DNA of 64,000 nt, from the NCBI GenBank assembly GCA_938040325.1, contig CALHXW010000314.1, positions 9,154 to 73,153 of the forward strand, written 5' to 3'. Under the pieces are notes generated by a model, which saw only the letters and a list, made by a program, of their open reading frames with translations, had not been told where the DNA came from and searched no databases. The stretch's first letter is position 1, and the number at the start of each line of letters is the position of its first letter. Shown piece after piece: positions 881-26,149 of the stretch. Source of the DNA: an uncultured bacterium. GTDB taxonomy: Bacteria > Myxococcota_A > UBA9042 > PHBI01. The position numbers were made by a program, and so were the translations under genes.

Positions 881-1759
881 TTGTCCGCCAGAACGCCTGA
901 CACTGTGGATGCGCTCTCCACCAACACGCGCCCGACTGGCATCCCCATGCCGTGGATGACCGCACTTCGATCACTGCGAGTGCACCAATGGTGGTATTTC
1001 GCAACGTTGCCGCTGGGGGCGCTCGCGTTTGCGGTGCCAACCTGGGGCGACGTTTTCCTGGGTGTGTGCTGCGCGTCTGCGTGCCTTGCCGCTGCCTTTG
1101 GCCTCAATGCGATCACCGACCGCGCTGGCGATCGTTGCGCGTGGAAGAACCCCCTCGTCGGCCGTGGCGAAGGCGCGGGCCGCGTTCTCGGTTTAACTGC
1201 CGGATGCGGCGCCGTCGCTCTCTTGACCGCTTCGTGGGTTGGGCCGACGGCCCTCCTTGCCGCCGGGCTTTCAGTCCTCGCTGGACTCGTCTACAGCGTC
1301 GGCCCAAGATGGAAGGCAAGGCCTGGAATCGGAACGCTCTGCAATGGCGTCATCTTTACGCCGCTTCTTTTCGTTGGAACCTCAGCAGTAGTTGATACCG
1401 AAGTGGCGCTTGCCCTCACCATCGCACTGATGACGCTGGTCACTCAGAACCAACTCCTCCATGAAGCGGCAGACATGGACGAGGACCACCGTTCCGGCAC
1501 GAGGACGACAGTCGTTGTGATCGGCGCGGGGCACGTCAAGCGCGTCGGGTTGGCGTTGGGAGCGGTTGGCGCAGCAACAACGCTCGGGTTCGCGGGTTTG
1601 TCGCCGCTGACGTTCACGGCCTCGATCGGCATGATGTGTGGAGGCATCTTGCCTTTTATAGTGCAATCAACTGAGTGGAGCCGGCTACGCCGGCAACACC
1701 GATGGCTTGCTGCAGCGGGTGGAGGCACGATGTTTTTTGCCGCGCTGCTGCTTCAGTGA
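881..1759 (+). CDS. UbiA-superfamily prenyltransferase, integral membrane
   Basis: The ORF begins with TTG at 881, and ATG candidates lie at 947 and 956. It has multiple hydrophobic segments. The first Asp-rich motif is LNAITDRAGD (NxxxDxxxD) and the second is EAADMDEDHRSGTRT (DxxxD..G..T), as in DGGGP/chlorophyll/heme-O synthase type UbiA enzymes. Confidence 0.8.
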   Translation: MSARTPDTVDALSTNTRPTGIPMPWMTALRSLRVHQWWYFATLPLGALAFAVPTWGDVFLGVCCASACLAAAFGLNAITDRAGDRCAWKNPLVGRGEGAGRVLGLTAGCGAVALLTASWVGPTALLAAGLSVLAGLVYSVGPRWKARPGIGTLCNGVIFTPLLFVGTSAVVDTEVALALTIALMTLVTQNQLLHEAADMDEDHRSGTRTTVVVIGAGHVKRVGLALGAVGAATTLGFAGLSPLTFTASIGMMCGGILPFIVQSTEWSRLRRQHRWLAAAGGGTMFFAALLLQ

Positions 1760-1767
1760 GGCAAACG

Positions 1768-2811
1768 ATGCGCAGGATGAAACGTTCTGCAGTGCGGCGA
1801 GCGCTGGGCTTCGCCTATGCGAAAGCCAGCGGCGGGTCAATGCCCGTGTCAATTACGTTTATCACGACAGATCGGTGCAACTTCGACTGCAGCTACTGCC
1901 AGATACCCCATGCACCGACACCCGAAATGTCGACGGATGACTTCAAGCGCGCTATCTATGAATTTTGTCGCCATGGCCTGACGCGAGCGAGCTTCAGTGG
2001 CGGCGAAGTGATGTTAAGGCGCGACACTGTTGAGCTTGTTACGTATTCCAAGTCCCTCGGCTTGTTCACGTCGCTAAACTCCAATGGTTGGTCGACAGGC
2101 CGCCACCTTGACGAGCTCGCTGGTGTTCTCGACATGCTTGTCGTGTCGCTTGATGGTGACCGTGAGGCCCATGATGCGGTTTGCCGCCGACCGGGCTCTT
2201 ATGACCGTGTCCTTGACCTCCTATCGGACGCGAGGGACCACGGTATCTCAACTGCCACCATTTCCGTGATCGGGCCATGGAACCTCCACCTTTTGGATGA
2301 CCTGATGGCAACTGCGAGTCGACTGGGGGCATGGGCGTATTTCCAACCCGCTCAGGCCGACTGCTACGATCAGTCGGCTGGACTCACCGGCGGACTTGGC
2401 GCCAGCGAAATCCATGCCCTGGCAAACGCGCTTGAGCGAGGACTAGCGCGAAATGAGCCGATTGCCGCGTCAACCGGCTACCTCGCACGCTTGAAGCAGG
2501 CGCCAAAGTTCACGAGCTGCGCGAAGTGTGCAGCTGGTCGGTTCTTTGCCTCGGTGCTCCCGGATGGTCGTGTGGTGCCGTGCCATTTAACCTCAGAACG
2601 ACACCATTACCCCAGCGGTCTCGATGTTGGTTTCGTGAAGGCGTTCAACGCGCTACCTCGACCGAGTGGTGACGGTTGCGCGATCAGTCCGTACCAGGAG
2701 AGCGACCTGATTTTCTCCTTGGACCGCAACGCAATTCAAGCCGCGCTTCGCCGCTCCATCCCCTCATCTGCAAGCGCTTATCGCGTGATGAAGTCTGCAA
2801 TCTTGCGCTGA
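1768..2811 (+). CDS. Radical SAM enzyme with twitch/SPASM-like C-terminal Cys domain (paralog 1)
   Basis: ATG at 1768 lies 8 nt after the UbiA stop; the track start at 1675 would overlap UbiA. Motifs: TTDRCNFDCSYC (CxxxCxxC), GGEVMLRRD, and C-terminal CAAGRFFASVLPDGRVVPC (C-x12-G-x4-C). Confidence 0.9.
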   Translation: MRRMKRSAVRRALGFAYAKASGGSMPVSITFITTDRCNFDCSYCQIPHAPTPEMSTDDFKRAIYEFCRHGLTRASFSGGEVMLRRDTVELVTYSKSLGLFTSLNSNGWSTGRHLDELAGVLDMLVVSLDGDREAHDAVCRRPGSYDRVLDLLSDARDHGISTATISVIGPWNLHLLDDLMATASRLGAWAYFQPAQADCYDQSAGLTGGLGASEIHALANALERGLARNEPIAASTGYLARLKQAPKFTSCAKCAAGRFFASVLPDGRVVPCHLTSERHHYPSGLDVGFVKAFNALPRPSGDGCAISPYQESDLIFSLDRNAIQAALRRSIPSSASAYRVMKSAILR

Positions 2812-3869
2812 GCCTTCACCAACGTGAGGTTGCCTGAGCACGCCTGCTCCCAACACATGCAGCCGTATTCTGCTGACTGCATGCGCTTGCGGGTCGCCTG
2901 CGTCGCCCGATGCGCCCACAGCTCTCGAATCGACAACTTGGTAACGTTGCCAACGCGCGAGTCTTCGCGTCCATAACAGAGCTTTACATCCCCGTTAGGC
3001 AAAATCGTCATCGACGTCGCCGGAACCAAGAGACAGCGGAACCCGATGTCTTTGTAGAGTGCATCAGGCTCGAAGACATACCGCGAGGCCATATCCAAAT
3101 AGGGCGATCTGAGCCACGGATGTGCCTTTTGAAGGTCAGCGAGGCTGCGCTCAAGGGCCAGCCTGTCTTCCGGACGAAACATCACATCATGATCGCGAAC
3201 CGAGTGAATGCCGTTGTCCTGAACAATCTGTAAGAGAATCCCGTCGACCTTTTCTTGCCAATAATCCACGTAGGAAATGAGATGTCTGAAGTTGCCTCGG
3301 TGGATCGTGCAGCGGACCTGAATCTGCGGACGCTTGTTTCGCCGTTGCCGTCGCAACGTAGACGCTGCCGCCTCGACCTGGTGAAAGAGCCCGCTTAGAC
3401 CACGAAACCGGTCATGCTCGTCGGAACGATGGCTATCGACACTAAACGTGACGGTGTCGACACCAGTCTCCACCAGCCATCCGAGGTGACTTTCGATGTT
3501 ACGCCCGCTGGTCCCAAGGCTGACGTAAACGCCCCGCGCTTTTAAGACTGCCGCAAGGTCGCCAAGCTCGTCGACAAGGGTTGGCTCTCCGCCGATAAGC
3601 GAGACCCCCCACACGCCAGCGTCGGCAATGGCATGGGCGAGCGCGACCCGCTGTTTCCGATTGAGCTCAGCCACAGGCCGCCCCATATCGCAATGCCGAC
3701 AACGCAGAGGACAGCGTTCAGTCAATGCCCATGTGACGAATGTCGGCGCCGTGGGCTTGGTACCAGGGAACTGCACACCACTCAGGTTCGCCAGGAGGCT
3801 TGGTGCAGCGCGTGCTAAGTCTCCGAGGATGACTTGCCCGCCAGCGAACCGTGGACGAATTGTTTTCAC
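2778..3869 (-). CDS. Radical SAM enzyme with twitch/SPASM-like domain (paralog 2)
   Basis: Motifs: LTERCPLRCRHC (CxxxCxxC), GGEPTLVDE, CLLVPATSMTILPNGDVKLC (C-x13-G-x4-C) and CMCWEQAC. The probable GTG start at 3869 overlaps the upstream TGA (GTGA at 3866-3869). The track start at 4016 would overlap the aminotransferase by 150 nt. Confidence 0.9.
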   Translation of the reverse strand: MKTIRPRFAGGQVILGDLARAAPSLLANLSGVQFPGTKPTAPTFVTWALTERCPLRCRHCDMGRPVAELNRKQRVALAHAIADAGVWGVSLIGGEPTLVDELGDLAAVLKARGVYVSLGTSGRNIESHLGWLVETGVDTVTFSVDSHRSDEHDRFRGLSGLFHQVEAAASTLRRQRRNKRPQIQVRCTIHRGNFRHLISYVDYWQEKVDGILLQIVQDNGIHSVRDHDVMFRPEDRLALERSLADLQKAHPWLRSPYLDMASRYVFEPDALYKDIGFRCLLVPATSMTILPNGDVKLCYGREDSRVGNVTKLSIRELWAHRATQATRKRMQSAEYGCMCWEQACSGNLTLVKAQRKIADFITR

Positions 3870-5191
3870 GCCGCTTCTGCCCCTGTAGCCAAAAAGTCTT
3901 GGTGGGCCTCGACATAACGGGCCATCGCACCGATCTCTGCAGGCGTCAGGTTCGGATGCATCGGAAGAAACAGCATCTTGTTGGTGTATTGACGGGCGTT
4001 TGGCGTGTCTCGCCAAAAGGACGCGAACGCTCGCTCAGCGGTCGCACAAATAAGATTCGTCGAGGTGGTGTCGATCCCGTCCCTATGGAGCGCCGCTTTG
4101 AGTTGGTCCGGTTGATGAGTAAAGAGAGGCAGCCGCCACCATGTGCTGACCGCCTTGCGGGGGACGATAGGCAGCGCGTTTCGCACAGCCGGACTCGATG
4201 CCCGATAGAATGTGTCGACAAGTTGAGCCCGCGTCGCGTTGTCATGCTCCAGATGCATCAATGCTCTCAGAGCCATCAGCGCTTGCGCATCGCTGAACCG
4301 ACGAAACAGGTACGCAGGCAGTGCCCGACGAACCGCCCGGGGACGGCGACGCCACGGCACCAGGTTCCCTCGCTGGAACTCCCTAACGGCGTTCGGAAAG
4401 TACTGCTCCGCGCGTCCTACCGCGGCATGCATTGAACGCGTGTAGGTTCTTTTCGACGAGGCGGCATGCAGTGCAAGATCGCGAACAAACAATCCCGCGA
4501 GCTGGCGATGACTTACTGGCCGCAACTGACTGTTTCGACGCCGAAGGTACCTGGCTAACTCAGGATCGTCAGTGAGCGTCAAGCCGCCAATGAACGAACT
4601 CATCGGTTTCAGCGTGGTGAGGCTGAAGAAACCTGCTGCACCGAACGTACCTGCGTACCGCCCATTGAGTGAGGCCCCCATCGCCTGAGACGCATCCTCT
4701 AGCACGACCAGCGAGCGACGTTCAGCGATTGCCAAGATCGATGGCATGTCTGAGAGCAAGCCACAGAGATGGGTCACAAGGATCGCACAGGTCCGCCGAG
4801 TCACGGCGTTTTCCAAGCACTCCACATCCACACTGCAAGTGCGAGCGCCGAGGTCGACGAAACGTGGCACTAACCCGTGCTCCAAGATGACGTTGACAAC
4901 GTCGGCAATCGTCACAGGCGACAAAATCACCTCTGAGCCAGGCCTGAACCGATAATGCTCGAGGAGCATGCTGAGCGCGACTCGTGCATGAGGAAGCGCA
5001 ATGACGTTTCCTGCGCCGAACGTAGCCGCGCAGGCTTGTTCGAACTTAGCGACTTGCTCACCTTCCCGCGCGCGATGACCCACCAAGGTCTCGACGAGGT
5101 CCTGCGCTGTCTTCACCGGTTCGAAGTACAGCTGGCCGCGTGGCAAAGGACGTCTGCGTACCACGTGACCTCCCCTAGCGCCGCGGTTCAA
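3866..5191 (-). CDS. DegT/DnrJ/EryC1/StrS-family PLP-dependent aminotransferase
   Basis: Family-typical strings include ALPHARVALSMLLE, GSEVILSPVTIADVVN, LVVLEDASQAMGA and FFSLTTLKPMS (candidate PLP lysine). The TTG start at 5191 overlaps the upstream stop (TTGA at 5188-5191). Confidence 0.85.
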   Translation of the reverse strand: MNRGARGGHVVRRRPLPRGQLYFEPVKTAQDLVETLVGHRAREGEQVAKFEQACAATFGAGNVIALPHARVALSMLLEHYRFRPGSEVILSPVTIADVVNVILEHGLVPRFVDLGARTCSVDVECLENAVTRRTCAILVTHLCGLLSDMPSILAIAERRSLVVLEDASQAMGASLNGRYAGTFGAAGFFSLTTLKPMSSFIGGLTLTDDPELARYLRRRNSQLRPVSHRQLAGLFVRDLALHAASSKRTYTRSMHAAVGRAEQYFPNAVREFQRGNLVPWRRRPRAVRRALPAYLFRRFSDAQALMALRALMHLEHDNATRAQLVDTFYRASSPAVRNALPIVPRKAVSTWWRLPLFTHQPDQLKAALHRDGIDTTSTNLICATAERAFASFWRDTPNARQYTNKMLFLPMHPNLTPAEIGAMARYVEAHQDFLATGAEAA

Positions 5192-6552
5192 CCCTCAACC
5201 GTCACACGCCCATCGCCCTTGAGCAGCACGCCAGCCGGCAGCCGGACTGGCTTGGCCGGACGACCGAGCTTCTTTTCGCGTTCCGCCCGCTTGAGGGGCC
5301 GGTCAATGACGTTGCGATGACATGCCATCTGAACTTTGCCATCGACGAGGTAGTACCGTGAGCAGCGGGCGGCGTCTTGAACATCAATGCTCTGTGGCTC
5401 GCGAAACGTCTCGATAGAGATCAGCAGCGACCTCTCGCTCCACGACGCGGCTTCCGCTCGGCCACCACGAGATGCCATCTTCATGAAAGCACGCAAGTTT
5501 CTTGGGTTCTTCAAGAAGCCGGACACTCGCGTCGCCGGATGAAAGCTCTTCGAGTCTCCAAGAAGGGGCAGCGGCAGAAAGCAGCGACGCGTCGCAAAGT
5601 CCGGGTCATTCGTTAGCCGGTGAATCGCATGCATCGCCGCAAAGAACATCACCCAATCGCGGTACTTGATTCGACCACTGGTCTGCTCATCGATGGCGGC
5701 AATCATTTCGATTTCATCGAGCAGATTGTCGTCGGTGGTCAAGAGCCCGCGACCCAAGCGACGAGAAGGCATCAACGAAACATGACGAACACCCGGCGTG
5801 TCGAAGCCCATACGGATCAACTGCCCCATGTCGGTCATGTTAAAGTTCGAGTCCACCATACAAGCCAAGTCGATATTCATACCGACTCTCACGAGGTTAT
5901 CGATGGCCTGCTGTCGAATCTCGCTTGTATTCTTCACACCGCGAAGCGCGTAGAGCGACTCGTCATCCATTGTATCGGTCTGCAGCAGCACCCAGCGGCA
6001 GCCGCTGTTGTAGAGCATCTTGACGTAGTCGAAATCCTTGAGCTTGATGCCGTTGCTCAGGAGCTTCACGTCGTAGCCTAAACCCGTCAGTCTTGAGATC
6101 CACTTTGGCAAGTCAGACAAAAGGGTGGGCTCGCCCCCTGTCAGGTAGAGAACGGGCTTGTACGGAAGGATGGCTTTGAGCTGCTCAATCGTTTCGTCCA
6201 ACGATGGCATCTTGCCGCTCACCATGCCTTTTGCATCGATGAGGCAGTTCGGACAGCGCATGTTGCAGCTCTCCGTGACATCGATGAAGAGCCCACGCAG
6301 GTGCTTTGCGTGGGCGATGTCGTGCTCCAAAATCGGTGGTGGCAATGGTTCGAGCATCGACTCCATCAAGCGAAAATGCTTGGGATGTTTGCTCTGCTTG
6401 GCGTCGTGTTGACCGTGAACTGGGCACTGTCGCCGAAGCCAAATGGCGCCGGAGTGCTCGACGATCTGGGCGGGCACGAGCTGGGCGCAGTCTTCGCACC
6501 AACCTGTTGTGTCGGTGATCGACTTCGAAAGAAGAGTTCGTAGCAGTCCCAT
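5188..6552 (-). CDS. Radical SAM enzyme with N-terminal CxxC...CPxHG zinc-ribbon (Tes / MJ0619-like architecture)
   Basis: ATG at 6552 is preceded by AGGAGG 5 nt upstream. Motifs: WCEDCAQLV...RQCPVHG zinc ribbon, DVTESCNMRCPNC (CxxxCxxC) and LTGGEPTLL. About 454 aa. Confidence 0.85.
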   Translation of the reverse strand: MGLLRTLLSKSITDTTGWCEDCAQLVPAQIVEHSGAIWLRRQCPVHGQHDAKQSKHPKHFRLMESMLEPLPPPILEHDIAHAKHLRGLFIDVTESCNMRCPNCLIDAKGMVSGKMPSLDETIEQLKAILPYKPVLYLTGGEPTLLSDLPKWISRLTGLGYDVKLLSNGIKLKDFDYVKMLYNSGCRWVLLQTDTMDDESLYALRGVKNTSEIRQQAIDNLVRVGMNIDLACMVDSNFNMTDMGQLIRMGFDTPGVRHVSLMPSRRLGRGLLTTDDNLLDEIEMIAAIDEQTSGRIKYRDWVMFFAAMHAIHRLTNDPDFATRRCFLPLPLLGDSKSFHPATRVSGFLKNPRNLRAFMKMASRGGRAEAASWSERSLLISIETFREPQSIDVQDAARCSRYYLVDGKVQMACHRNVIDRPLKRAEREKKLGRPAKPVRLPAGVLLKGDGRVTVEG

Positions 6553-6717
6553 GCGTCCTCCTATGGCGACGTTAACGAGGGCCGAAGCGGATGTCCAGCC
6601 CGACCAAGTCGACGACAAGGGGCCCCTCGGGCCAACGACACGACCCATGCCTCTCGGACCGGAACCCCAAACTCGCGAGCGTCGTGATGGGTTGCCCGCA
6701 GGAGTTTCGACTGCCGT

Positions 6718-15997: not shown

Positions 15998-16063
15998 AGA
16001 TCGGCCGTCACAACCGGGCGCGCGCGAACGCCATCGGCGAGCGAGCAGAGAGACCGCGCGCCA

Positions 16064-17501: not shown

Positions 17502-18481
17502 CGAAGCCAGGCGGCGTGAAGCGCTGACGGCGATCCAGAGAGGATCAGGTTCATCTCCACACGGGTGTCGCACCAGCAAGCCCGGCAGCTGTCGGGCACT
17601 AAGGCCTTAAACGCCTCGCCAAAGGACTCCGTCGCGAGCGTGCGGCCCGTGGGCTTGCGCACGAGGTTTCCGCAGCCGTAGAGGCTGCCGTCTGGCTCGA
17701 TGCGAGCGTACACCACGCCTGCACTGCACGTGATCGGGGCATAGACCGGCCAGTTCCGAAGGTACTCAAGGCCCGCGATCGAGTTCTGGATGCGCTTGTC
17801 GCCGGCCTTACGGCGGGCGATGAGGTCGTCGACAAACCGGTGCCACTCCTCGGGCTTCGGCGTCAGAGGCGCGAGGTCACGGCGCCCCATGGCCGGGGTG
17901 TCGCGAACGATGGTGAAGCCCGCCTTTCCACCCAGAGATCCCGCCAGTTCCAGCACGGCCTCTGCTTCGCCGAGGTTGTGGCGCGTGACCACCATGTGAA
18001 GATCGACCGACAGCCCCGCTGACCGCGCGGCGCGCGCACCGGTGACGGCGCGCTGGTGCGCCTTGGCGCCACGCTGGATGTCGTGCGCGACGGGCCCGCC
18101 ATCGACGCTCACGGTGAGTCCCGCGAGCTTGCCGGTCAGCGCGCCCAGGTGCTTCGGCACCAGCAGGCCGTTGCTGTGGATGGTGACGTCAACACCCGCG
18201 GCAGCGAGCAGATCCACGATCGGCAGGCACATCGGATGAACGAGGGGCTCCCCCCCGGTGAGCGCCACCCGCTGAACCCCAGCGTCCACCATCTCGCGGG
18301 CGACCTCCAGCATGCGCTCGTTGGGCATCTCGCTTGAGCCGCGATCCCAGCGTCCGCAGTAGTCACACGAGAGGTTGCAGGTGTCGGTCAGCGACCAGCC
18401 CACAAAGACCGGCCGCCGGCGACCAAACACGGCTGCGGCCGCCATCTGGGCGCCCATGCGAATCTTTGTGGGGAGCTTCAT
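17498..18481 (-). CDS. Radical SAM enzyme with twitch/SPASM-like domain (paralog 3)
   Basis: ATG at 18481 is preceded by GGAGACG. Motifs: LTDTCNLSCDYC (CxxxCxxC), GGEPLVHP, CSAGVVYARIEPDGSLYGC (C-x12-G-x4-C) and CRACWC. The track start at 18838 is an Arg/Pro-rich extension. Confidence 0.9.
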   Translation of the reverse strand: MKLPTKIRMGAQMAAAAVFGRRRPVFVGWSLTDTCNLSCDYCGRWDRGSSEMPNERMLEVAREMVDAGVQRVALTGGEPLVHPMCLPIVDLLAAAGVDVTIHSNGLLVPKHLGALTGKLAGLTVSVDGGPVAHDIQRGAKAHQRAVTGARAARSAGLSVDLHMVVTRHNLGEAEAVLELAGSLGGKAGFTIVRDTPAMGRRDLAPLTPKPEEWHRFVDDLIARRKAGDKRIQNSIAGLEYLRNWPVYAPITCSAGVVYARIEPDGSLYGCGNLVRKPTGRTLATESFGEAFKALVPDSCRACWCDTRVEMNLILSGSPSALHAAWLR

Positions 18482-18656
18482 CGTCTCCGCCCGTGACGGC
18501 AAGGCCGCCCAAGGGAACAAAGGGGTGCAGGCAGAGCGCCCGCTGTCGGCCCACAGCGTAGCACCGTCGGCGAAGGCGGAGCAACGGGCAAGCCGGCGCG
18601 CTGCCGGCCCGTGAGACGGCCGCACCCGCTGCGAAGACGGGCACCGAGAGCATGGT

Positions 18657-19715
18657 GTGATATGGTCGAGGCGGTCGCGCATGGTGGCGCCTGACTCCGA
18701 CGAGGTCTTCGACACCCCGATGAGACGAACACAACAAGCAGGCGCGGCACTCGGGATGGCGCGGGCACGCTTCCTCGGCCAGCGAGTGCCTGTAGCGGTG
18801 CGCATCAACCTCAACAACCGCTGCCACTCGCGCTGCACCTACTGCTCGTTTTGGTACACGCCGACCGAGGAGATGAGCACCTCCGAGGTCCGCAGCATCA
18901 TCGCCCAGCTAGGCCGTCTCGGCACCAAGCGCCTGTCGCTCAGCGGTGGCGAGCCGATGCTCCGCAAGGACCTTGGGGAGCTGATCGAGACGGCTGTTGC
19001 AGCCGGGATCTCGGTCGGACTCAACACGACAGGCTACCTCTTTCGGCGTCGCATCGCCGCGCTGCGATCGCTTGACCTCGTGAAGTTCTCCGTAGACGGC
19101 CCCCGCGAGGTCCATGATGCGGTTCGCGGCCGCGACGGCGCCTTCGACGAGCTGCTCGACGCCATCGAGGTTGCGAAGTCCGAGGGACTGCGTTTCTCGT
19201 TTGCCTTTACGATGACCGGCGACAGCCTCAGCGCCGTCCCTTGGGCCATCGACTTCGCCGAGCAGCACGGCACCTTCGTGGCGTTTCAGCCCGTGATGGC
19301 CCACGAACACGCCAGCGCTGACGTGGAAGCCAACTTTCCGTCCGAGAGCGACTACCGCGACACGATCGCACTCCTCGAGCGGGAGAAGCGACGCCGACCC
19401 AAGACGATCCGCAACTCCCTGGGGGGCCTCGACCACATCAGGAGTTGGCCCAAGATCAGCGGCCTGAAGTGCTGGGCGGGTGACGTGTTTATGGTCATTG
19501 AGCCCAACGGCGACCTGCTGCCATGCGACCGCATCACCTACGACAGGCCGACGCCCAACTGCCGGACGACATCTGTTCGCGACGCGCTAGCGCAGCTGCC
19601 GCCGGTGGACTGCGCTGGCTGCGGGTTTTGCGGCTCGGTGGAGCTCAACCTCCTCATGGCCGGCAAGGTCGCCGACGTGGTCCCCGCGGTGCTCGGCGTG
19701 ACCTCAAGCCGGTGA
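18657..19715 (+). CDS. Radical SAM enzyme with twitch/SPASM-like domain (paralog 4)
   Basis: Motifs: NLNNRCHSRCTYC (CxxxCxxC), GGEPMLRKD, CWAGDVFMVIEPNGDLLPC (C-x12-G-x4-C) and CAGCGFCGS. By comparison with the paralogs, the likely true start is ATG 18681 or 18720. Confidence 0.9.
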   Translation: MIWSRRSRMVAPDSDEVFDTPMRRTQQAGAALGMARARFLGQRVPVAVRINLNNRCHSRCTYCSFWYTPTEEMSTSEVRSIIAQLGRLGTKRLSLSGGEPMLRKDLGELIETAVAAGISVGLNTTGYLFRRRIAALRSLDLVKFSVDGPREVHDAVRGRDGAFDELLDAIEVAKSEGLRFSFAFTMTGDSLSAVPWAIDFAEQHGTFVAFQPVMAHEHASADVEANFPSESDYRDTIALLEREKRRRPKTIRNSLGGLDHIRSWPKISGLKCWAGDVFMVIEPNGDLLPCDRITYDRPTPNCRTTSVRDALAQLPPVDCAGCGFCGSVELNLLMAGKVADVVPAVLGVTSSR

Positions 19716-20710
19716 AGCGCGCGCTCGTCACGGGCGCTGCCGGACACATCGGTGGCTGGGTGACACGGCTGCTGCTCGAGCGCGGCGTCTCGGTCACGGC
19801 CCTCGATCGTCGGCCAGTCAACGTCGAGGCGCTGCGCCATCCAAGCCACGGCGCGTCGCTTCGCGCCATCACGGGCGACGTCCGCAAGCCCGATGCCCTC
19901 AAGCGGGCACTCGACGTCGGGCCGCCCGACGCGATCTTTCACCTTGCGATGGAGCTCTGGACGGGCACGGAGTCGCCGAGCGAGCTCACCAGCATTGCCG
20001 TCGACGGGATCGACATCCTCCTGGACGTCGTGGCCTCCATGAGCCCCAGCCCGCGCGTCGTCTACACGAGTTCCTGCGCAACGCTGGGCGTCAGCCGTGA
20101 CCCGACAGCGCCGTGCACCGAGCGGGACCGCGCGCAACACGCCAGCACGCCCTACGTGGCGGCCAAGCTCGCCGCTGAAGCGCGGCTACGTGAGCGGCTC
20201 GAGGAGGCACGCGATGTCGATGTCGTGACCACCCTGCCCTCGATGACCATTGGCCCCCGCGACCCACGCGGCACACCGTCGAACAGGCGGGTCGCTGCCA
20301 TGCTCAAGAGCTGGTGGAACCCCCTCACGCTCGCAGGCGGTCTCAACGTTGTCGACGTTCGCGACGTGGCCCTTGGCCACCTCCAAGCGTTCGACCATGG
20401 CGCAACAGGCGCACGCTACATCCTCGGCGGCCACAACCTCACGTTTGCGGAGCTCACACGCGCCTGCCAGCGAGCGGCCGGCTGGCGCGCGCTCCCCCCG
20501 GTCTCCCTGCCCGCACGGCTCTTGCTGCCAGGTGTGCGAGCGGTCCAAGCGCTGACAACCCGACTGGGAAGGCGCCCCTTCGTCACGACCGAGCAGGTCG
20601 AGCAGCGCATCGGCCGCTACGCGTTCGTCGACCACAGCCTGGCCAGCGAGCAGCTCGGGTACCGCCCGCGGGCACTTGCGGAGACGCTGCGAGCGGTCGC
20701 AGAGCGATGA
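19712..20710 (+). CDS. NAD-dependent epimerase/dehydratase (SDR family)
   Basis: VKRALVTGAAGHIGGWVTRLLLERG contains the GxxGxxG motif at the N-terminus. The GTG start at 19712 overlaps the rSAM stop (GTGA at 19712-19715). The track start at 19523 lies in the rSAM gene. Confidence 0.85.
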   Translation: MKRALVTGAAGHIGGWVTRLLLERGVSVTALDRRPVNVEALRHPSHGASLRAITGDVRKPDALKRALDVGPPDAIFHLAMELWTGTESPSELTSIAVDGIDILLDVVASMSPSPRVVYTSSCATLGVSRDPTAPCTERDRAQHASTPYVAAKLAAEARLRERLEEARDVDVVTTLPSMTIGPRDPRGTPSNRRVAAMLKSWWNPLTLAGGLNVVDVRDVALGHLQAFDHGATGARYILGGHNLTFAELTRACQRAAGWRALPPVSLPARLLLPGVRAVQALTTRLGRRPFVTTEQVEQRIGRYAFVDHSLASEQLGYRPRALAETLRAVAER

Positions 20711-20720
20711 GTGTAGCGCT

Positions 20721-21704
20721 ATGGTCATGAGCCACGACGCCAACGACCACGGAGGAGCGACCATCCGAGCGAGCGGAACCGACAACGTCATCACGCCAGG
20801 CCTCGTCGCCGTGTGCTCGCGAAGCGTGTCGCGGCACCCGGTGCTGCGCGATCGTCTTGCGGCCCTCGGTGCTCCCCTTCGCCTCAACGACGCGGGCCGG
20901 CGACTGGCGGGCGACGAGCTCCAGCGCTTCCTCTCGGGCGCTCGCCAAGCGATCGTCGGGCTGGAGACCATCGACGAGCAACTCTTGGCGGCCTGCCCGG
21001 ACCTACAGCACGTGTCAAAGGTCGGTGTAGGCACCGACAACCTCGACTTCGATGCTCTCGAGCGGCACGGGGTCAGCGTTCACGTCAGGCCAGGGGTCAA
21101 CCGCCGCAGCGTCGCGGAGCTTGCGATCGCGATGGCCATCTCCCTGCTGCGCCACGTTGGCGTCGCCGATCGCGCCATTCGCTCTGGCGCGTTCCCGCGG
21201 CTCATCGGCCGCGAGCTCAGCGCCTGCACCCTCGGCGTGCTCGGCTGCGGCAACGTCGGCAAGGAGGTCGTCCGGCTTCTCTCCGGCTGGGGCGTCACAC
21301 TCTTGGCCCACGACATCGTCGACTTCCGCGCCTTCTACGCGCGCCACGACGTGGAGGCCGTGTCGCTCCAGGAGCTGCTGGCGCGCTCGGATGTGCTGAC
21401 CCTTCACCTGCCGCTCGACGCCTCGACACGCGGCCTCATCGATGCGGCGGCGCTGTCGGCCATGAAGCCTCAGTCCGTGCTGGTGCAGACCTCGCGTGGC
21501 GGCATCGTTGACGAAGGCGCCTTGGTCGAGGCGCTCGAGACAGGCCACCTCCTCGGCGCCGGACTCGACGTGTTCGCCGCAGAGCCGCCGGCCGGGAGCC
21601 CGCTGCTCGCGTCTGACAAGGTCCTGCTCACCTCTCACCTCGGCGGTAGCACCGAGGAGGCCGTCCTCGCGATGGGCCATGCCGCCATCGATGGGCTCCG
21701 CTGA
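20721..21704 (+). CDS. D-isomer-specific 2-hydroxyacid dehydrogenase (PGDH-like)
   Basis: Motifs: LGVLGCGNVGKEVVRLL (NAD fold), LTLHLPL and VQTSRGGIVDE. ATG at 20721 lies 10 nt after the previous stop. Confidence 0.85.
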   Translation: MVMSHDANDHGGATIRASGTDNVITPGLVAVCSRSVSRHPVLRDRLAALGAPLRLNDAGRRLAGDELQRFLSGARQAIVGLETIDEQLLAACPDLQHVSKVGVGTDNLDFDALERHGVSVHVRPGVNRRSVAELAIAMAISLLRHVGVADRAIRSGAFPRLIGRELSACTLGVLGCGNVGKEVVRLLSGWGVTLLAHDIVDFRAFYARHDVEAVSLQELLARSDVLTLHLPLDASTRGLIDAAALSAMKPQSVLVQTSRGGIVDEGALVEALETGHLLGAGLDVFAAEPPAGSPLLASDKVLLTSHLGGSTEEAVLAMGHAAIDGLR

Positions 21705-21870
21705 GCCTCCGTTGTGGACGGCGACGCATTTAGGTCCGGACGCCGCCGCCTCGGCCGGCGAGGTGTGTCGGGCCCCTTCAAGAAGTCGGACCGAAGAGAT
21801 CGGCGATGGACCGTCGAGGAGATAGGAACGACCTTCCGGCATCTACGACTGGCACGCGCCGCGGCCACTC

Positions 21871-22401
21871 ATGTACGCTCGGCGCGTGACGACGACCTCC
21901 AGCTCCGACCTCGACTCCCGGCTCAAGCGTATTGCGCTGGTCGTGCTCGACGTTGACGGCGTGCTGACCGACGGCCGCATCACCTACCTAGGCCCCGAGG
22001 TCGGCTGGACACGAACCTTCCACGTCCATGACGGCCACGGCATCAAGCTGCTTTTGCGCGCGGGCTTGCCGGTCGCTGTGCTCTCGGCCGACGACAACCC
22101 GGCGATGCGCGCACGCGTCGCCATGCTCGGCATCGAGCACGCCGAGTACGGCTGCGAAGACAAGCGTGACGCACTCACGCGACTGCAGAGCACGTGCGGC
22201 GCGACGGACGCGACGACGCTGTACATGGGCGACGAGCTCTTCGACGTGCCGATCATCGAGCGCGTAGCGGTCGGCGTCTCCGTGGCCGATGCACGCCCCG
22301 AAGCGCGGGCGGCTGCCGATTTTGTGACCGAGCGAGGCGGAGGCCGTGGCGCTGTTCGCGAAGTCATCGACAGGCTCCGTGCTGCCAAAGGGATGGCGTG
22401 A
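21871..22401 (+). CDS. KdsC-like HAD-IIIA phosphatase (3-deoxy-ulosonate phosphate phosphatase family)
   Basis: Motifs: IALVVLDVDGVLTDGRI, HVHDGHGIKLL, LYMGDELFDVPIIERV and GGGRGAVREVIDRL. Confidence 0.85.
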   Translation: MYARRVTTTSSSDLDSRLKRIALVVLDVDGVLTDGRITYLGPEVGWTRTFHVHDGHGIKLLLRAGLPVAVLSADDNPAMRARVAMLGIEHAEYGCEDKRDALTRLQSTCGATDATTLYMGDELFDVPIIERVAVGVSVADARPEARAAADFVTERGGGRGAVREVIDRLRAAKGMA

Positions 22402-23177
22402 CCGACGTGTCTAACACCACGCCGCTCCGACAGGCGCTCCAGACAGGCCCGGCCGTGATCGGGAGCTGGATGGGGCTCGCCGACCCGGCGATCGCCGAGG
22501 TCCTCTGTGAGGCCGGCTGTCGCTGGCTTGGCATTGACCTTGAGCACTCGACGACAACACTCGCTCAGGCCGGAGCTCTCATTCAGACGGCTCGGGCAGC
22601 AGGCGTCGACCCGATGGTGCGACTGTCGACCAACGATGCGACCCAGATCGCTCGGGTCATGGACGCCGGCGCCACCGGGATCATCGTGCCGCACGTCAAC
22701 AGCCGCGCCGACGTCGATCGGGCCTACCAGGCGATGCACTACCCGCCTGCCGGCACGCGTGGCACCGGGCTGTCGCGTGCCCAAGGCTGGGGCGAGCGCT
22801 TCACCGAGTACCGCCAGTGGCTTGGCCGCAGCGCCGTATTGGTCGCTCAGATCGAACACTTCGAGGCGCTCAACCACCTCGACGCCATCTTCAGCCACCC
22901 AGGTCTCGACGCCTACATGATCGGCCCCTACGATCTCTCGTCGTCACTCGGCCACGCCGGCGACTTCACGCCGGAGCCGTTTTTGGCGGCGATCGACAGC
23001 GTCAAAGCCGCCGCCGCCCGGCATGGCGTGGCGGCCGGCTACCACCTCGTCGAGCCGAACCCCGACGAGCTCGCGCGCCTTGTGGCTGAGGGCTACCGGT
23101 TCGTCGCATACAGCGTCGACTTCCGGCTCTTGGCACGCGGCTTTCGGTCAGGACTGGCAGGGCTTGAGCGCTCATGA
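22398..23177 (+). CDS. HpcH/HpaI-family class II (pyruvate) aldolase
   Basis: Motifs: IGSWMGLADPAIAEVLCEAGCRWLGIDLEHS, RLSTNDATQIARVMDAGATGIIVPHV and HYPPAGTRG. The GTG start at 22398 forms a GTGA overlap with the KdsC-like stop. Confidence 0.85.
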   Translation: MTDVSNTTPLRQALQTGPAVIGSWMGLADPAIAEVLCEAGCRWLGIDLEHSTTTLAQAGALIQTARAAGVDPMVRLSTNDATQIARVMDAGATGIIVPHVNSRADVDRAYQAMHYPPAGTRGTGLSRAQGWGERFTEYRQWLGRSAVLVAQIEHFEALNHLDAIFSHPGLDAYMIGPYDLSSSLGHAGDFTPEPFLAAIDSVKAAAARHGVAAGYHLVEPNPDELARLVAEGYRFVAYSVDFRLLARGFRSGLAGLERS

Positions 23178-24154
23178 CCGCTCATCGGCCACCGATCCGG
23201 CTGGGTATCATCGGGGCCGGCGTGATGGGTGCCCGCCGTGAGGCCGCCGCGCTCGCTGACCCTAGGTTTGCCCACGTGGCAACCGTGGACGGTCAAGCCG
23301 CCGCGGACGACATGCTGCGCTCCGACGCGCTAGACGCCGTCGTGATCGCGGTGACTCCAGACGCGGCGCCTGGTCTCACGGCAACCGCGCTCGAACGTGG
23401 TCTGCATGTCCTGTGCGAGAAGCCGCCAGCCCGATCGCTGGCTGAGCTTGGTCCGGTCATCGATGCCGCCCGGCGGCACCCGGACACACAGCTCGCGTTC
23501 GGCTTCAACCACCGGCACCACGGCTCCGTCGTTGCGGCTCGCGCGCTCGTCGCGAGCGGGCGCTACGGTACCGTTGTCGGCATGCGTGGCGTCTACGGCA
23601 AACGCGCCGACGGCATGTCTGGCTGGCGCACGGAGCCGGCGACGAGTGGCGGCGGTATCCTGCGCGACCAAGGTGTTCACATGGTCGACCTGATGCATGT
23701 CTTTGCGGGCGGGCCCTTCACCGACGTCACCGGGCGCATCTCGCACACCCACCAAGCGGACGTCGAGGACAGCGCCTGGGCGCTCCTGACGACCGACACA
23801 GGCGTTGTTGCCACGCTCTGCTCGAGCGCGGTCGAGGCCCGAGAGATCTTCCGGCTCGAGCTGATGTTGAGCGACGGCCGCTTAACGCTCGCAGGCATCT
23901 TGAGTGGGTCTGGCGCTTACGCACCCGAGCGCCTCATCGCCGAGCGCCCGGGCGCCGAGCCGGCGGTCACGTCCTACGCGGTCGACCACTCGTGGGCGCA
24001 CGAGCTCAGCGCGTTCGGCGACGCGATTGAGCGCGGGACCGCCGTCGCGGACGGCACGCTGTCGCAGGCTGCGGCGGCCACCCGAGTCGTCGATGGTATC
24101 TATGCGTCAGCGAGCCGGCGCGACAGTGCGCGCCGGGAAGGAACACGAGCATGA
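23174..24154 (+). CDS. Gfo/Idh/MocA-family NAD(P) oxidoreductase
   Basis: Motifs: IRLGIIGAGVMG and HVLCEKPPA. ATGA overlap with the upstream stop at 23174-23177. Confidence 0.85.
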   Translation: MTAHRPPIRLGIIGAGVMGARREAAALADPRFAHVATVDGQAAADDMLRSDALDAVVIAVTPDAAPGLTATALERGLHVLCEKPPARSLAELGPVIDAARRHPDTQLAFGFNHRHHGSVVAARALVASGRYGTVVGMRGVYGKRADGMSGWRTEPATSGGGILRDQGVHMVDLMHVFAGGPFTDVTGRISHTHQADVEDSAWALLTTDTGVVATLCSSAVEAREIFRLELMLSDGRLTLAGILSGSGAYAPERLIAERPGAEPAVTSYAVDHSWAHELSAFGDAIERGTAVADGTLSQAAAATRVVDGIYASASRRDSARREGTRA

Positions 24155-24771
24155 GCCAAACCACGGACTGGTTTGACGCCACCGACGGACCCGAGGCGTT
24201 TGCCAGCGCTTACCTCTCCCACGTCCGCGGCGTGCTGGCGGCGGTCGACCGCGCAAGCGTCGCTGCCGCCATCGAGCTGCTTGACGCGACCCGAACCGCC
24301 GCCGGACGGGTGTGGGTCATCGGCAACGGTGGAAGCGCCGCCGCCGCCAGTCACTTCGCCAACGACCTGGTTGCCGTCGTTGGCTCTCCGCCCTTCACCG
24401 CGTTCAGCCTCACCGACAACCCCGCTGTCCTCACGGCCATCGCCAACGACCACGGCTACGCCGACGTCTTTGCGCGACAGCTCCACGGCCGGTGCCGCGC
24501 CGGCGACCTCGTGGTCGCGATCAGCGCGTCCGGCAACTCCGGCAACGTCCTCCGAGCCGTCGACGTGGCGCACGCTTGCGGTGCGCATGTGCTCGCGCTC
24601 TCTGGGTTTGACGGTGGTGGCGCGCTTGCTGCGGCGGCTGACGCCGCGGTGATCGTCCCGTCTCGTGCAGGCGAGTACGGCCCTGTGGAGGGAACGTTCT
24701 CCGTGCTCTTGCACGTCATAGCGAACTACCTGGCTCTGAAGGCGGCACCGACGGAGCCTGGTGATGCCTAG
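24151..24771 (+). CDS. SIS-domain sugar-phosphate isomerase (GmhA-like, no CBS domains)
   Basis: Motifs: VWVIGNGGSAAAASHFANDL and VAISASGNSGNVL. ATGA overlap at 24151-24154. Confidence 0.85.
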   Translation: MSQTTDWFDATDGPEAFASAYLSHVRGVLAAVDRASVAAAIELLDATRTAAGRVWVIGNGGSAAAASHFANDLVAVVGSPPFTAFSLTDNPAVLTAIANDHGYADVFARQLHGRCRAGDLVVAISASGNSGNVLRAVDVAHACGAHVLALSGFDGGGALAAAADAAVIVPSRAGEYGPVEGTFSVLLHVIANYLALKAAPTEPGDA

Positions 24772-25447
24772 CCCCCTCACGGCGCTCTTGATCATCAAGG
24801 CTCACAGCGTCCGCGTACCGAACAAGAACTTCCGCGAGCTCGCTGGCAAGCCCCTGTGTCGCCACATCCTTGCAACCCTTGAGCAGGTCAGCGACATCAC
24901 CCGCGTCGTCATCGACACCGACGCGCGCAGCCAGCTTGCCGCGGCTGGGGTCCATGACCGCGTCAGCGCAGGCGACCAGCGGCCGGTCATCATCGACCGC
25001 GAGCCCGCGCTCCTGGGCGATGAAGTCACGGCCAACGCGCTCATCGCGTCCATGCTCGGCCGGGTGGACGGCGAGCACTTTCTCATGACCCATGTCACCA
25101 ATCCCCTGCTCTCGGCCGACACCATCCGGAGCGCTATCGCCGCGTGGTGGACCGCTCTAGCCGCCGGTACGGCCGACTCGCTCATGTCGGTCACGAGACA
25201 CCAGGCGCGCTTCTACGATGCCGACGGCCAGCCGACAAACCACGAGCCAGCACGCTTGCTGCCAACACAACAGCTCCCGGTCCTCTACGAGGAAAACAGC
25301 CTCCTCTACCTCTTCACTCGCACGAGCTTCGCTGAGACGAAGAGCCGCGTGGGTGTCCGCCCGATGTTTTGGCCGACGCCAAAGATCGAGTCGGTCGACA
25401 TCGACACGCCCCAGGACTGGGACGTTGCAGCCGCCCTGCTGAGGTAG
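24764..25447 (+). CDS. Acylneuraminate/3-deoxy-ulosonate cytidylyltransferase family (CTP_transf_3-like)
   Basis: Motifs: ALLIIKAHSVRVPNKNFRELAGKPL at the N-terminus and ESVDIDTPQDWDVAAALL at the C-terminus. ATG at 24764 has GGAG 7 nt upstream and overlaps the SIS gene end. Confidence 0.8.
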   Translation: MPSPLTALLIIKAHSVRVPNKNFRELAGKPLCRHILATLEQVSDITRVVIDTDARSQLAAAGVHDRVSAGDQRPVIIDREPALLGDEVTANALIASMLGRVDGEHFLMTHVTNPLLSADTIRSAIAAWWTALAAGTADSLMSVTRHQARFYDADGQPTNHEPARLLPTQQLPVLYEENSLLYLFTRTSFAETKSRVGVRPMFWPTPKIESVDIDTPQDWDVAAALLR

Positions 25448-26115: not shown

Positions 26116-26149
26116 GTTGTCGCTCTCTCCCGCGGACGCCCGCCCGGCG

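Follow-up and report, generated by a model that had tools for sequence, protein, structure and literature searches.

A radical SAM-rich island in an uncultured Myxococcota chromosome: two adjoining, separately inherited cassettes

What could a bacterium be making with some 25 kb of DNA in which 7 of 22 genes encode radical S-adenosylmethionine (rSAM) enzymes? The question is raised by contig CALHXW010000314.1 of assembly GCA_938040325.1, from an uncultured member of the Myxococcota, of which we analysed 64,000 nucleotides (positions 9,154 to 73,153). This whole stretch is called the window, and all coordinates are window positions. The genes of its rSAM island are numbered G1 to G22 and loci related to it L001 to L172; one of these, L004, comes from another assembly of this organism and covers the sequence to the left of window position 1. 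An earlier note, written from the letters alone, had taken the island for one 25-kb pathway. The evidence well supports a different answer, namely that two separately inherited, rare and uncharacterised cassettes happen to adjoin in this chromosome. Cassette A occupies 1-11.78 kb and extends to the left by another 4 kb or more; cassette B occupies 11.74-25.45 kb. Their 11.8 and 13.7 kb of window sequence are conserved separately and differ sharply in composition.

GC content at third codon positions (GC3), computed gene by gene, is 0.59-0.72 in two rSAM genes upstream of the window, a GT-C glycosyltransferase gene, a 77-codon open reading frame (ORF) and G1 to G8, and 0.76-0.86 from G9 onward, housekeeping genes included. 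The break, at about 11.75 kb between G8, which is the last gene of the low-GC3 block, and G9, is sharp. Cassette B is native in composition. Cassette A is foreign and, because of this, was probably acquired horizontally. At the junction of the two there is no riboswitch, tRNA or mobile-element gene; scans of the window for riboswitches, other RNAs and tRNAs found none, and a scan for promoters and terminators was uninformative in this high-GC DNA.

Gene neighbourhoods, which the earlier note had proposed to compare, tell the same story from two sides: each cassette has synteny in relatives, and the cassettes are not together in any other sampled locus. Cassette A genes recur in four lineages (L001, L002, L003/L006 and L088) with no cassette-B gene within 10 kb; indeed none of G7 to G22 lies within that distance there. 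The first three lineages share a UbiA-family prenyltransferase, a G2-type rSAM, a DegT aminotransferase, a G3-type SPASM rSAM and a polytopic protein of 580-645 amino acids, all around an orthologue of G5. The L088 locus, short and truncated, displays G5, DegT and G3, followed by an LPG_synthase_TM protein. Likewise, cassette B recurs without any cassette-A orthologue in L085, L086, L087 and L171/L172, each of which combines a G9 homologue with an HpcH aldolase, a SIS isomerase and at least one twitch/SPASM-type rSAM. A cytidylyltransferase is found in L085-L087 (the L171 contig ends just past G9), a 2-hydroxyacid dehydrogenase in L085, L086 and L171, and KdsC, GFO and LPG_synthase_TM proteins in subsets of these loci. 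Elsewhere cassette B is also accompanied by a DegT enzyme of its own, extra rSAMs, a carbamoyltransferase, an Asn-synthase-like enzyme and large polytopic proteins, to which L087 adds a PMT_2 GT-C. The 949-residue form of G6, as well as G7, G8, G11-G13 and G16, are specific to the genome studied here. The L088 and L089 contigs have a GC content of 44-46%, so that cassette A crosses very different genomic backgrounds, in keeping with horizontal spread and with its foreign composition in the window. Both cassettes seem to be mobile and conserved independently of each other, one having probably been inserted next to the other.

The content of the island had been described as 24 ORFs in four transcription units, bounded at position 881. 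ORF listing and translation, with gene starts set from the genes called in L004 and from orthologue lengths, give instead 22 genes of at least 170 amino acids and one doubtful 77-residue ORF, arranged in five units: the GT-C gene, the small ORF, G1 and G2 (+ strand); G6, G5, G4 and G3 (- strand); G7 and G8 (+ strand); G14 through G9 (- strand); and the eight genes G15 through G22 (+ strand). Comparison with L004 reveals that the left edge of the window cuts through the island, which extends beyond position 881 and continues left of the window, while its right end is reached by about 25.4-27.8 kb. The seven CxxxCxxC triads quoted in the earlier note are all present in the translations, each in its own gene, from 1.7 to 19.7 kb. 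Together with two upstream genes in L004 and an eighth rSAM gene at 29036-30349, this makes at least ten rSAM genes within ~37 kb. On our own assumption that ~1% of genes are of this type, the presence of seven among 22 is far above chance (binomial P ~2e-9).

Families were assigned by Pfam and NCBIfam scans with curated cut-offs, relatives were sought by sequence search of the PDB, and folds were predicted with AlphaFold2 and compared with Foldseek. The other families named previously (UbiA, DegT, a class I methyltransferase, two polytopic membrane proteins, a glycosyltransferase-like protein and an eight-gene sugar-acid operon) were all recovered, by Pfam, by fold or by prediction of transmembrane segments. 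So was the variety of the rSAMs: SPASM/twitch-type enzymes (G2, G3, G14 and G15), a Zn-ribbon type (G5), a B12-binding type (G6, borderline) and a HemN-like one (G11). Six of the seven pass the Pfam Radical_SAM model (PF04055), G6 being just under it. The SPASM cut-off is passed by G3 and narrowly missed by G15 (20.6 vs 21.5); G2 and G14 have a C-terminal Cys pattern. The view that the island matches no characterised cluster has also held. A single curated NCBIfam cut-off is passed in it, that of the KdsC subfamily by G18, and our search of the literature on rSAMs with UbiA and aminotransferases, on HpcH with cytidylyltransferases, on bacterial Tes homologues and on calditol synthase returned no description of either cassette.

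Cassette A is centred on lipid-type enzymes. G1 (905..1759, + strand) is an AfUbiA-like prenyltransferase of the UbiA superfamily (Pfam UbiA, PF01040, 64.4 vs a cut-off of 34.2 bits). It carries both Asp-rich motifs, NAITDRAGD and DMDED, conserved across its orthologues and varied in L002. The profile of these orthologues, which are found in L001-L003 and L168-L170, retrieves from the PDB only AfUbiA (4TQ3, 2.5e-12) and Rv3806c (8J8J, 5.4e-5), and the family, with 68 proteins, is broader than that of G5. Judging from its sequence, we treat G1 as a prenyl-diphosphate-using prenyltransferase, because the ligands of Rv3806c are not kept, as detailed below, and the second Asp-rich motif is kept as in AfUbiA. 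Its partner G2 (1768..2811, + strand; CNFDCSYC; Radical_SAM 82 bits) is a twitch/SPASM-type rSAM with BlsE as closest PDB relative (6e-15), followed by SkfB, PqqE and viperin. BlsE, an rSAM of sugar nucleosides, is the closest solved structure for both G2 and G14; it is a nucleoside-sugar decarboxylase and, like viperin, acts on small molecules. Orthologues of G2 adjoin UbiA with identities of 50% in L001, 46% in L003, 51% in L168 and 34% in L170.

UbiA, a G2-type rSAM and a B12-binding rSAM form the conserved minimum of this half, seen in L002, L003, L168 and L170, with UbiA and the B12-rSAM alone of the three in L169; the B12-rSAMs that accompany UbiA in these five loci are 500-545 amino acids long. 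In L168, UbiA and the G2 orthologue are found with a UDP-GlcNAc 2-epimerase, a PIG-L deacetylase, the B12-rSAM, family 2 glycosyltransferases (GT2) and short-chain dehydrogenases/reductases (SDR), a head-group set reminiscent of HpnI/K/J. In L169, UbiA and the B12-rSAM keep company with an MMPL transporter, a CDP-alcohol phosphatidyltransferase, a VTT/DedA-type protein and a nucleotidyltransferase, that is, with genes of lipid head groups and transport. The company of this UbiA subfamily suggests isoprenoid lipids whose chains are tailored and whose heads bear sugar or amino groups. Two of these loci deserve a remark of their own. In L168 (1396-3816 and 8050-17924), where the UbiA-G2 pair lies beside GT2, PIG-L and B12-rSAM genes, several fragmented ORFs resembling WelO5, of the Fe/2OG halogenase family, are nearby. 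An even denser rSAM locus surrounds the G1-family UbiA of a 414-kb metagenome contig (L170:2808-20329), with four B12-binding rSAMs, a G2-type rSAM, an 881-residue rSAM, a methyltransferase and a Cupin_8/JmjC protein.

The second strand of cassette A is an aminotransferase with its rSAM. G3 (2778..3869, - strand; CPLRCRHC; Radical_SAM 53 bits, SPASM 33 bits) and the DegT/DnrJ/EryC1-family enzyme G4 (3866..5164, - strand; Pfam 197.7 bits), dependent on pyridoxal phosphate, overlap by 4 nt, start of G3 on stop of G4, exactly as they do in L001 and L003, and the pair is always adjacent: orthologues of G3, with 39-54% identity, adjoin the DegT gene in L001, L002, L003 and L088. The best PDB relative of G4 is 7B0D, annotated as 'glutamine--scyllo-inositol transaminase' (105 bits), sugar aminotransferases coming next at about 90; no NCBIfam equivalog passes its cut-off for G4.

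The strongest single lead is G5 (5188..6552, - strand; CNMRCPNC), with its N-terminal rubredoxin-like Zn-ribbon (Zn_ribbon_HMPTM 44.7 bits), and here the earlier suggestion of a Tes-like enzyme standing with UbiA has gained in substance. By sequence, the closest solved relative is the archaeal lipid enzyme GDGT-MAS/Tes (7TOL, E=7.7e-31). The AlphaFold2 model (pLDDT, the predicted local distance difference test, 86.7) matches 7TOL over its full length (503 columns, E=1.2e-26, TM-scores 0.74/0.69), the next Foldseek match, MoaA, being 17 orders of magnitude weaker at 1e-9. The comparison recovers the four domains of Tes: rubredoxin-like, N-terminal, RS core and C-terminal. Tes has four metal sites, a rubredoxin-like Fe (3Cys+His), an N-terminal [4Fe-4S] cluster (3Cys+His), the RS cluster and a C-terminal [4Fe-4S] cluster (3Cys+Met) (PMC13459092). 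An alignment of 16 members of the G5 family (P0001 numbering) displays invariant or nearly invariant Cys at 19, 22, 43, 96, 100, 103, 324, 397 and 411: C19, C22 and C43 go with a mostly conserved His, C96, C100 and C103 are the rSAM triad, and C324, C397 and C411 would suffice for a single auxiliary cluster. For the N-domain cluster of Tes, the same alignment has no conserved Cys between residues 47 and 95. The NCBIfam equivalog of Tes (NF045702) is matched at 122.2 bits and its cut-off of 450 is not passed, so that G5, as modelled, has the architecture of Tes and is not a Tes equivalog.

G5 is also rare. A word-based search gave 38 homologues at E<=1e-10, ~23 of them with at least 44% identity; exhaustive phmmer found 45 representatives of the subfamily at E<=1e-30 among 1.84 billion; two orthologues were found among 185,579 GTDB species representatives, and two in a scan of JGI metagenomes. 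The latter, on L088 and L089 (Ga0209692 and Ga0209475), have 56-57% identity, so that cassette A reaches low-GC organisms. A further orthologue (51%; L005:1999-5212) lies on a contig of 67.5% GC labelled 'uncultured Enterobacteriaceae', a label that looks wrong; the gene has only a B12-like rSAM near it, and no UbiA, DegT or G3.

The unit that contains G3 to G5 opens with G6 (6718..9567, - strand; CVHKCSFC), of 949 amino acids with long N- and C-terminal extensions. Its domain order is right for a class B rSAM, with both domains just under the Pfam cut-offs (B12-binding 27.0 vs 32.1, Radical_SAM 28.1 vs 29.5). NCBIfam did not assign it to a B12-rSAM subfamily, returning only weak, generic matches under threshold (MJ_1487, HpnJ, BchE and P-methylase families), and a sequence search of the PDB gave no relative. 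Two genes on the other strand close the low-GC3 block, neither of them with a counterpart in the related loci: G7 (9871..10632, + strand), for a 253-residue protein with no Pfam or NCBIfam hit (GC3 0.67), and G8 (10712..11776, + strand), for a protein of 354 residues with several conserved-looking Cys (DUF483 19 bits vs a cut-off of 25; GC3 0.65).

At the far left of the window, cassette A includes the 3' end (the last ~201 codons; 3..608, + strand) of the PMT_2-type GT-C gene. The complete protein in L004, of 558 amino acids, passes PMT_2 (PF13231) marginally (27.9 vs 26.1 bits), has six predicted transmembrane segments and a GC3 of 0.63-0.67, and finds no relative by sequence search of the PDB. 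A large polytopic protein stands beside UbiA in L004, L001, L002 and L003; that of L002 (640 amino acids) is narrowly under the cut-off at 25.5 bits, and those of L001 and L003 have no Pfam hit. A protein of 549 amino acids in the cassette-B locus L087 reaches 27.6 bits. These GT-C-type proteins have 5-10 predicted transmembrane segments. Between GT-C and G1 comes the Arg-rich 77-residue ORF (667..900, + strand), a doubtful gene that is called in L004, has no Pfam hit and lacks conservation in L001-L003. Two paralogous rSAM/SPASM genes, of 459 and at least 350 amino acids, with the motif IPTWQCELRC[NR]YC, immediately precede the GT-C gene (L004:14145-16972). Their GC3 is as low as that of the GT-C gene, their best NCBIfam matches are peptide maturases (PapB, SCIFF, HxsB, anSME), and they are absent from the other cassette-A loci.

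Cassette B is of another nature, and its core is the operon of sugar-acid type on the + strand. G15 (18657..19715; CHSRCTYC; Radical_SAM 90 bits), an rSAM/SPASM enzyme with orthologues of 53% identity in L086 and 36% in L087, comes first. G16 (19523..20710; Epimerase 98.9 bits; true start probably near 19709) is an HpnA-like NAD-dependent SDR epimerase/dehydratase that scores 192.7 bits against HpnA, for a cut-off of 367.65. G17 (20676..21704; 2-Hacid_dh_C 169 bits) is a D-2-hydroxyacid dehydrogenase resembling phosphoglycerate dehydrogenase (PGDH, 213 vs 454 bits), with orthologues in L085, L086 and L171. G18 (21871..22401) is the KdsC-type phosphatase of the HAD family (TIGR01670, 114.2 vs 106.95). 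G19 (22194..23177; true start probably near 22400) is an HpcH/HpaI class II (pyruvate) aldolase (Pfam 100.7 bits; HpaI 158 vs 369), with orthologues of 44-52% identity in L085-L087 and L171. It would take the place of a synthase dependent on phosphoenolpyruvate (PEP), of the KdsA/NeuB type, none of which was found in the window, L085-L087 or L171. G20 (23174..24154), a GFO/IDH/MocA oxidoreductase, has orthologues in L085 and L086. G21 (24151..24771; SIS_2 62 bits) is a GmhA-like sugar-phosphate isomerase that matches phosphoheptose isomerase models at 102-111 bits, under cut-offs of 209-320. Last comes G22 (24761..25447), a CTP_transf_3 cytidylyltransferase, perhaps of the KdsB/NeuA/PseF type (Pfam 41.4 vs 22.6), with 41-51% identity to its orthologues in L085-L087; in NCBIfam it matches only PseF (49 vs 206 bits), and no KdsB model at 1e-4.

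The genes of the - strand begin with G9 (11741..13120), the first gene of cassette B. The protein, of 459 amino acids, has no Pfam hit; its AlphaFold2 model (pLDDT 90.4) has a GT-B fold, with Foldseek matches to UDP-GlcNAc 2-epimerases, MurG, GT1 enzymes and TarL (target TM-score, TMt, up to 0.59). It has an invariant RLHPN motif and belongs to a family of 36 hypothetical proteins, named only in Myxococcota metagenome-assembled genomes (MAGs). The order 2-hydroxyacid dehydrogenase, G9, CTP_transf_3 is conserved in L085 and L086. From its predicted fold, G9 could be either the transferase for the activated acid or a NeuC/PseG-like epimerase/hydrolase of nucleotide sugars that releases the free sugar. 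A more precise role as CMP-sugar transferase of the sialyl or Kdo (3-deoxy-D-manno-octulosonate) type, suggested by an HP motif, was set aside: Foldseek gives a generic GT-B fold only, with UDP-GlcNAc 2-epimerases as best matches by TM-score.

G10 (13186..14211, - strand; Pfam 71 bits), an LPG_synthase_TM or flippase-like polytopic protein with six predicted transmembrane segments, belongs to a family that the cassette-B loci L085 and L086 share with the cassette-A locus L088. G11 (14078..15997, - strand; CQTSCQFC; Radical_SAM 60.5 bits), of uncertain start codon, is a HemN-like (class C type) rSAM with a long C-terminal extension. It matches STM4012 and ChuW/HutW at 113-117 bits, under the cut-offs, has the methyltransferase NocN and HemN as PDB relatives, and is absent from L085-L087 and L171. 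The class I SAM-dependent methyltransferase G12 (16064..16771, - strand; Methyltransf_23 52 bits) is absent from the other cassette-B loci, and G13 (16764..17579, - strand) is a membrane protein with five predicted transmembrane segments and no Pfam hit. G14 (17498..18484, - strand; CNLSCDYC; Radical_SAM 74 bits), finally, is a twitch-type rSAM, closest in the PDB to BlsE (5e-14), with orthologues of 57% identity in L085 and 60% in L086; its longest ORF runs to 18838, and we set its start from orthologues of 328-351 amino acids.

How might these two sets of enzymes work? Our preferred reading, to which we give a probability of about one half, is that cassette A tailors an envelope lipid or glycolipid that is aminated and has a prenyl anchor, that cassette B makes a CMP-activated acid of the 3-deoxy-2-ulosonic type, and that the two are independent. 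We infer all substrates and products that follow from the families, folds, motifs and synteny given above. In cassette A, G1 would attach a polyprenyl chain to a polar acceptor. On the resulting lipid, G2, the B12-type G6 and the Tes-fold G5 would carry out radical chemistry at C-H bonds; to judge by Tes and by the B12-rSAMs of archaeal and hopanoid lipids, the chain ends might be C-methylated or joined by C-C coupling. The simplest reading of the translationally coupled pair, borrowed from the logic of BtrN and BtrS, is that G3 would oxidise a hydroxyl of the head group to a ketone, which G4 would then transaminate. The PMT_2-type GT-C could, on the outer side of the inner membrane, use this product or decorate it. 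In cassette B, the GmhA-like isomerase G21 would supply an aldose phosphate, which the aldolase G19 would condense with pyruvate, replacing KdsA or NeuB; the KdsC phosphatase G18 would strip the phosphate, and G22 would activate the acid with CTP. G16, G17 and G20, with the twitch rSAMs G14 and G15, would tailor the sugar, and G9 would transfer the sugar acid or else supply free sugar as NeuC and PseG do. G10 might be a flippase-like partner, and G11-G13 lineage-specific additions.

Several points weigh against this reading. Apart from KdsC, no enzyme of the island passes an equivalog cut-off, and the synteny sampling comprises 10-kb flanks on a handful of MAG contigs. The chemistry of G5 may differ from that of Tes, because the Cys residues of the N-terminal auxiliary cluster are missing and the score is 122 against 450. 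GT-C enzymes need a donor linked to polyprenyl phosphate, and cassette A has no obvious enzyme making one. Furthermore, the two cassettes share types of parts, and could cooperate in this genome: in L086 and L087, cassette B, too, comes with a DegT enzyme, twitch rSAMs and a PMT_2 protein, and in L088 cassette A has an LPG_synthase_TM protein.

This last point is the starting ground of an integrated pathway, in which both halves build one prenyl-anchored envelope glycoconjugate: the ulosonic acid made by G15-G22 would be aminated by G3 and G4, C-methylated by G6 and G11, placed on the anchor made by UbiA, then exported or transferred by G10 and the GT-C. This is possible, though doubtful in our eyes. 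The two halves physically adjoin, the cassette B of the window has neither DegT nor GT-C of its own where L086 and L087 have their own DegT and extra twitch rSAMs (L087 also a PMT_2 GT-C), and the LPG_synthase_TM of L088 belongs to a cassette-A locus. Yet the cassettes are apart in every other sampled locus, the GC3 break at ~11.75 kb is sharp, and neither of the DegT enzymes in L086 and L087 is orthologous to G4 (48% identity over only 126 amino acids in one, 25% overall in the other). What holds best of the glycoconjugate with an ulosonic acid proposed in the earlier note is its general class, an envelope lipid or glycoconjugate plus a CMP-sugar acid, which fits the families and the neighbourhoods; for a single pathway the support is partial.

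A bolder form of the preferred separation of the cassettes would make cassette A a bacterial route to an archaeal-style isoprenoid lipid. By analogy with Tes, G5 would catalyse tail-to-tail coupling or macrocyclisation, the B12-rSAM C-methylation or cyclisation, and G3 with G4 would provide an aminated head. To our knowledge, the Tes fold is the only fold that couples lipid tails. We hold this version to be unlikely. If true, it would mean that a previously unknown class of lipids is made by Myxococcota and spread horizontally, with a bearing on the 'lipid divide' between bacteria and archaea and on the orphan sources of tetraether-like biomarkers.

Another interpretation of cassette A starts from phosphoribosyl pyrophosphate (PRPP), following the three-component extracytoplasmic glycosylation systems that make the pentofuranoses of Citrobacter O-antigen or mycobacterial decaprenylphosphoryl arabinose (DPA). 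UbiA would make polyprenyl-phosphoribose, which the rSAMs and DegT would convert to a lipid-linked aminopentose, delivered to an envelope acceptor by a flippase-like protein and the GT-C. The pairing of UbiA with GT-C is the signature of such systems (PMC11127046), Rv3806c is the sole PDB match of the G1 profile besides AfUbiA, no nucleotide-sugar enzyme is present in cassette A, and a HAD hydrolase adjoins the cassette of L001. The details of G1 speak another language. Rv3806c/PPPRS enzymes bind the phosphoribose and its 5'-phosphate through K28, Y70, Q135 and Y157, and have an NDxxDxxxD motif (PMC10994848; PMC11127046). In a weak alignment, the G1 family has Y or H at the position of K28, an invariant Gly at that of Q135, and the motif N-A-x-x-D-x-x-x-D; of the Rv3806c sites G1 retains only R22, Y70 and Y138, which are general to UbiA enzymes. 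Moreover, the G1 family, like AfUbiA, has retained the second Asp-rich motif, a typical feature of prenyltransferases that use diphosphates, and the match to Rv3806c (5e-5) is weak and limited to the N-terminal half. The PRPP or DPPRS role for G1, first suggested by this match and by the GT-C (systems of Kelly et al., 2024), was downgraded on finding that the phosphoribose ligands are not conserved, and we now judge it quite improbable.

The two other possibilities that had been raised, a cryptic ribosomally synthesised and post-translationally modified peptide (RiPP) and a tailored tetrapyrrole, have no positive evidence inside the window, and we reject both because no conserved neighbour supports them. 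For a RiPP, the SPASM/twitch rSAMs would mature a ribosomal peptide, later prenylated and glycosylated. The window has four such rSAMs and a small ORF of 77 residues, and two PapB/SCIFF/anSME-like enzymes lie just left of it; against this very improbable scheme, the PapB-like genes are outside the conserved set, G2 and G14 are closest to BlsE and viperin, enzymes of small molecules, the conserved partners are sugar and lipid enzymes, and no conserved small gene is called in L001-L003 or L085-L087, where no dedicated comparison of small ORFs was made. That a tetrapyrrole or prenylquinone cofactor is tailored here (as by BchE/BchQ/BchR with BchG, by NirJ/Ahb with HemN, or by MqnP with MenK) is the least credible of all, the family matches that recall it (G6 to BchE, G11 to HemN/ChuW, G2, G3 and G15 to NirJ/AhbC/AhbD) scoring far under their cut-offs, among conserved neighbours that are sugar and lipid genes and with no other tetrapyrrole or quinone gene in the window or the related loci.

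To the right of the island, 430 bp past G22 and on the same strand, begins D1 (25876..27834, + strand), a FAD oxidoreductase of the CrtI/phytoene-desaturase family (Amino_oxidase 68 bits; crtI_fam 141 vs a cut-off of 238). The other cassette-B loci lack it. An uncertain member of the cluster, it could have an isoprenoid chain as its substrate. Then come a gene for an RlmG-like rRNA methyltransferase (27846-29102), a leucine/isovalerate catabolism-type operon (33694-39105, - strand), with HMG-CoA lyase-like, biotin carrier, biotin carboxylase, enoyl-CoA hydratase and carboxyltransferase genes, and the genes of LigA and ClpB; it is because of these genes, of an ordinary housekeeping kind, that we take the island to be chromosomal DNA. 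The eighth rSAM gene of the window (29036-30349, - strand; 437 amino acids), HxsC/MoaA-like and native in composition, overlaps the 3' end of the RlmG-like gene. It is followed by a gene (30430-33111, - strand) for a protein of 893 amino acids that combines a VanY D-Ala-D-Ala carboxypeptidase domain with repeated Cys-rich metal-binding motifs of the MopE type. Proteins with MopE repeats flank the cassette in L001, too.

Both cassettes are rare, uncharacterised and confined so far to uncultured lineages, mostly Myxococcota MAGs. Cassette A joins in bacteria a Tes fold with a UbiA enzyme, an aminotransferase and a GT-C, in a clonable set of about ten genes that could show whether bacteria make isoprenoid lipids of the Tes type or else a novel amino sugar linked to a lipid. 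The route suggested by cassette B leads to a CMP-ulosonic acid via a class II pyruvate aldolase and two rSAM steps, which, if true, would be a new entry to the diversity of bacterial sugar acids. Finally, the orphan rSAM subfamilies of G2/G14/G15, G5 and G6 gain a defined genomic context for enzymology.

It remains to set the island against the systems it recalls. The first is Tes, the substrates of which depend on a UbiA enzyme, digeranylgeranylglyceryl phosphate (DGGGP) synthase. G5 resembles it in its full-length match to 7TOL, its putative rubredoxin-like 3Cys+His site, its CX3CX2C motif and its C-terminal Cys triad, and it sits beside a UbiA-family enzyme. It departs from Tes in its identity of 24%, the missing Cys of the N-terminal [4Fe-4S] cluster and its low Tes score (122 vs 450). 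It is bacterial, with no geranylgeranylglyceryl phosphate (GGGP) synthase or glycerol-1-phosphate (G1P) dehydrogenase nearby, is invariably accompanied by a DegT aminotransferase and a SPASM rSAM, and forms a small subfamily of its own. The three-component and DPA systems (PPPRS/Rv3806c with flippase, GT-C and epimerases) share with cassette A a UbiA enzyme beside a GT-C, a flippase-like protein (LPG_synthase_TM in L088, G10 in the window), cytoplasmic tailoring enzymes and the lack of nucleotide-sugar synthesis genes. They differ in that G1 lacks K28 and Q135 and has a second Asp-rich motif, in that tailoring would be entrusted to rSAMs and a transaminase rather than to DprE1/E2 or an SDR epimerase, and in the lack of a dedicated phosphatase in the window.

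Tailoring of the hopanoid side chain (HpnH, HpnI, HpnJ, HpnK, HpnA and an LPG_synthase_TM-type protein) follows a similar plan, where an isoprenoid lipid receives an amino-sugar or cyclitol head through an rSAM and a B12-rSAM; the UbiA-G2 pair of L168, with its GT2, PIG-L and B12-rSAM, and the HpnA-like G16 (193 bits) recall it. The island, by contrast, has no squalene-hopene cyclase or HpnCDE genes, all its Hpn scores are under the cut-offs, and the amino group would come from transamination, not from deacetylation of GlcNAc. In butirosin biosynthesis, the twitch rSAM dehydrogenase BtrN and the DegT-family BtrS make a couple of which the invariably adjacent SPASM rSAM and DegT enzymes G3 and G4 remind us, the more so as 7B0D, closest to G4 in the PDB, bears the annotation of a transaminase of the inosose type; here, however, there is no 2-deoxy-scyllo-inosose synthase or other cyclase, and nothing places G3 closer to BtrN than to other SPASM enzymes. 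As for cassette B, the routes to CMP-Kdo (KdsD-KdsA-KdsC-KdsB) and to CMP-nonulosonic acids (NeuC/NeuB/NeuA, Pse, Leg) offer the nearest counterparts of its SIS isomerase, KdsC phosphatase and CTP_transf_3 enzyme, of its GT-B protein, which has the fold of NeuC and PseG, and of its SDR and GFO tailoring enzymes. Apart from KdsC, no Kds, Neu, Pse or Leg equivalog is reached, however, and cassette B would perform the condensation with an HpcH/HpaI class II pyruvate aldolase, not with the PEP-dependent KdsA or NeuB, while counting among its conserved members two twitch rSAMs and a PGDH-like dehydrogenase.

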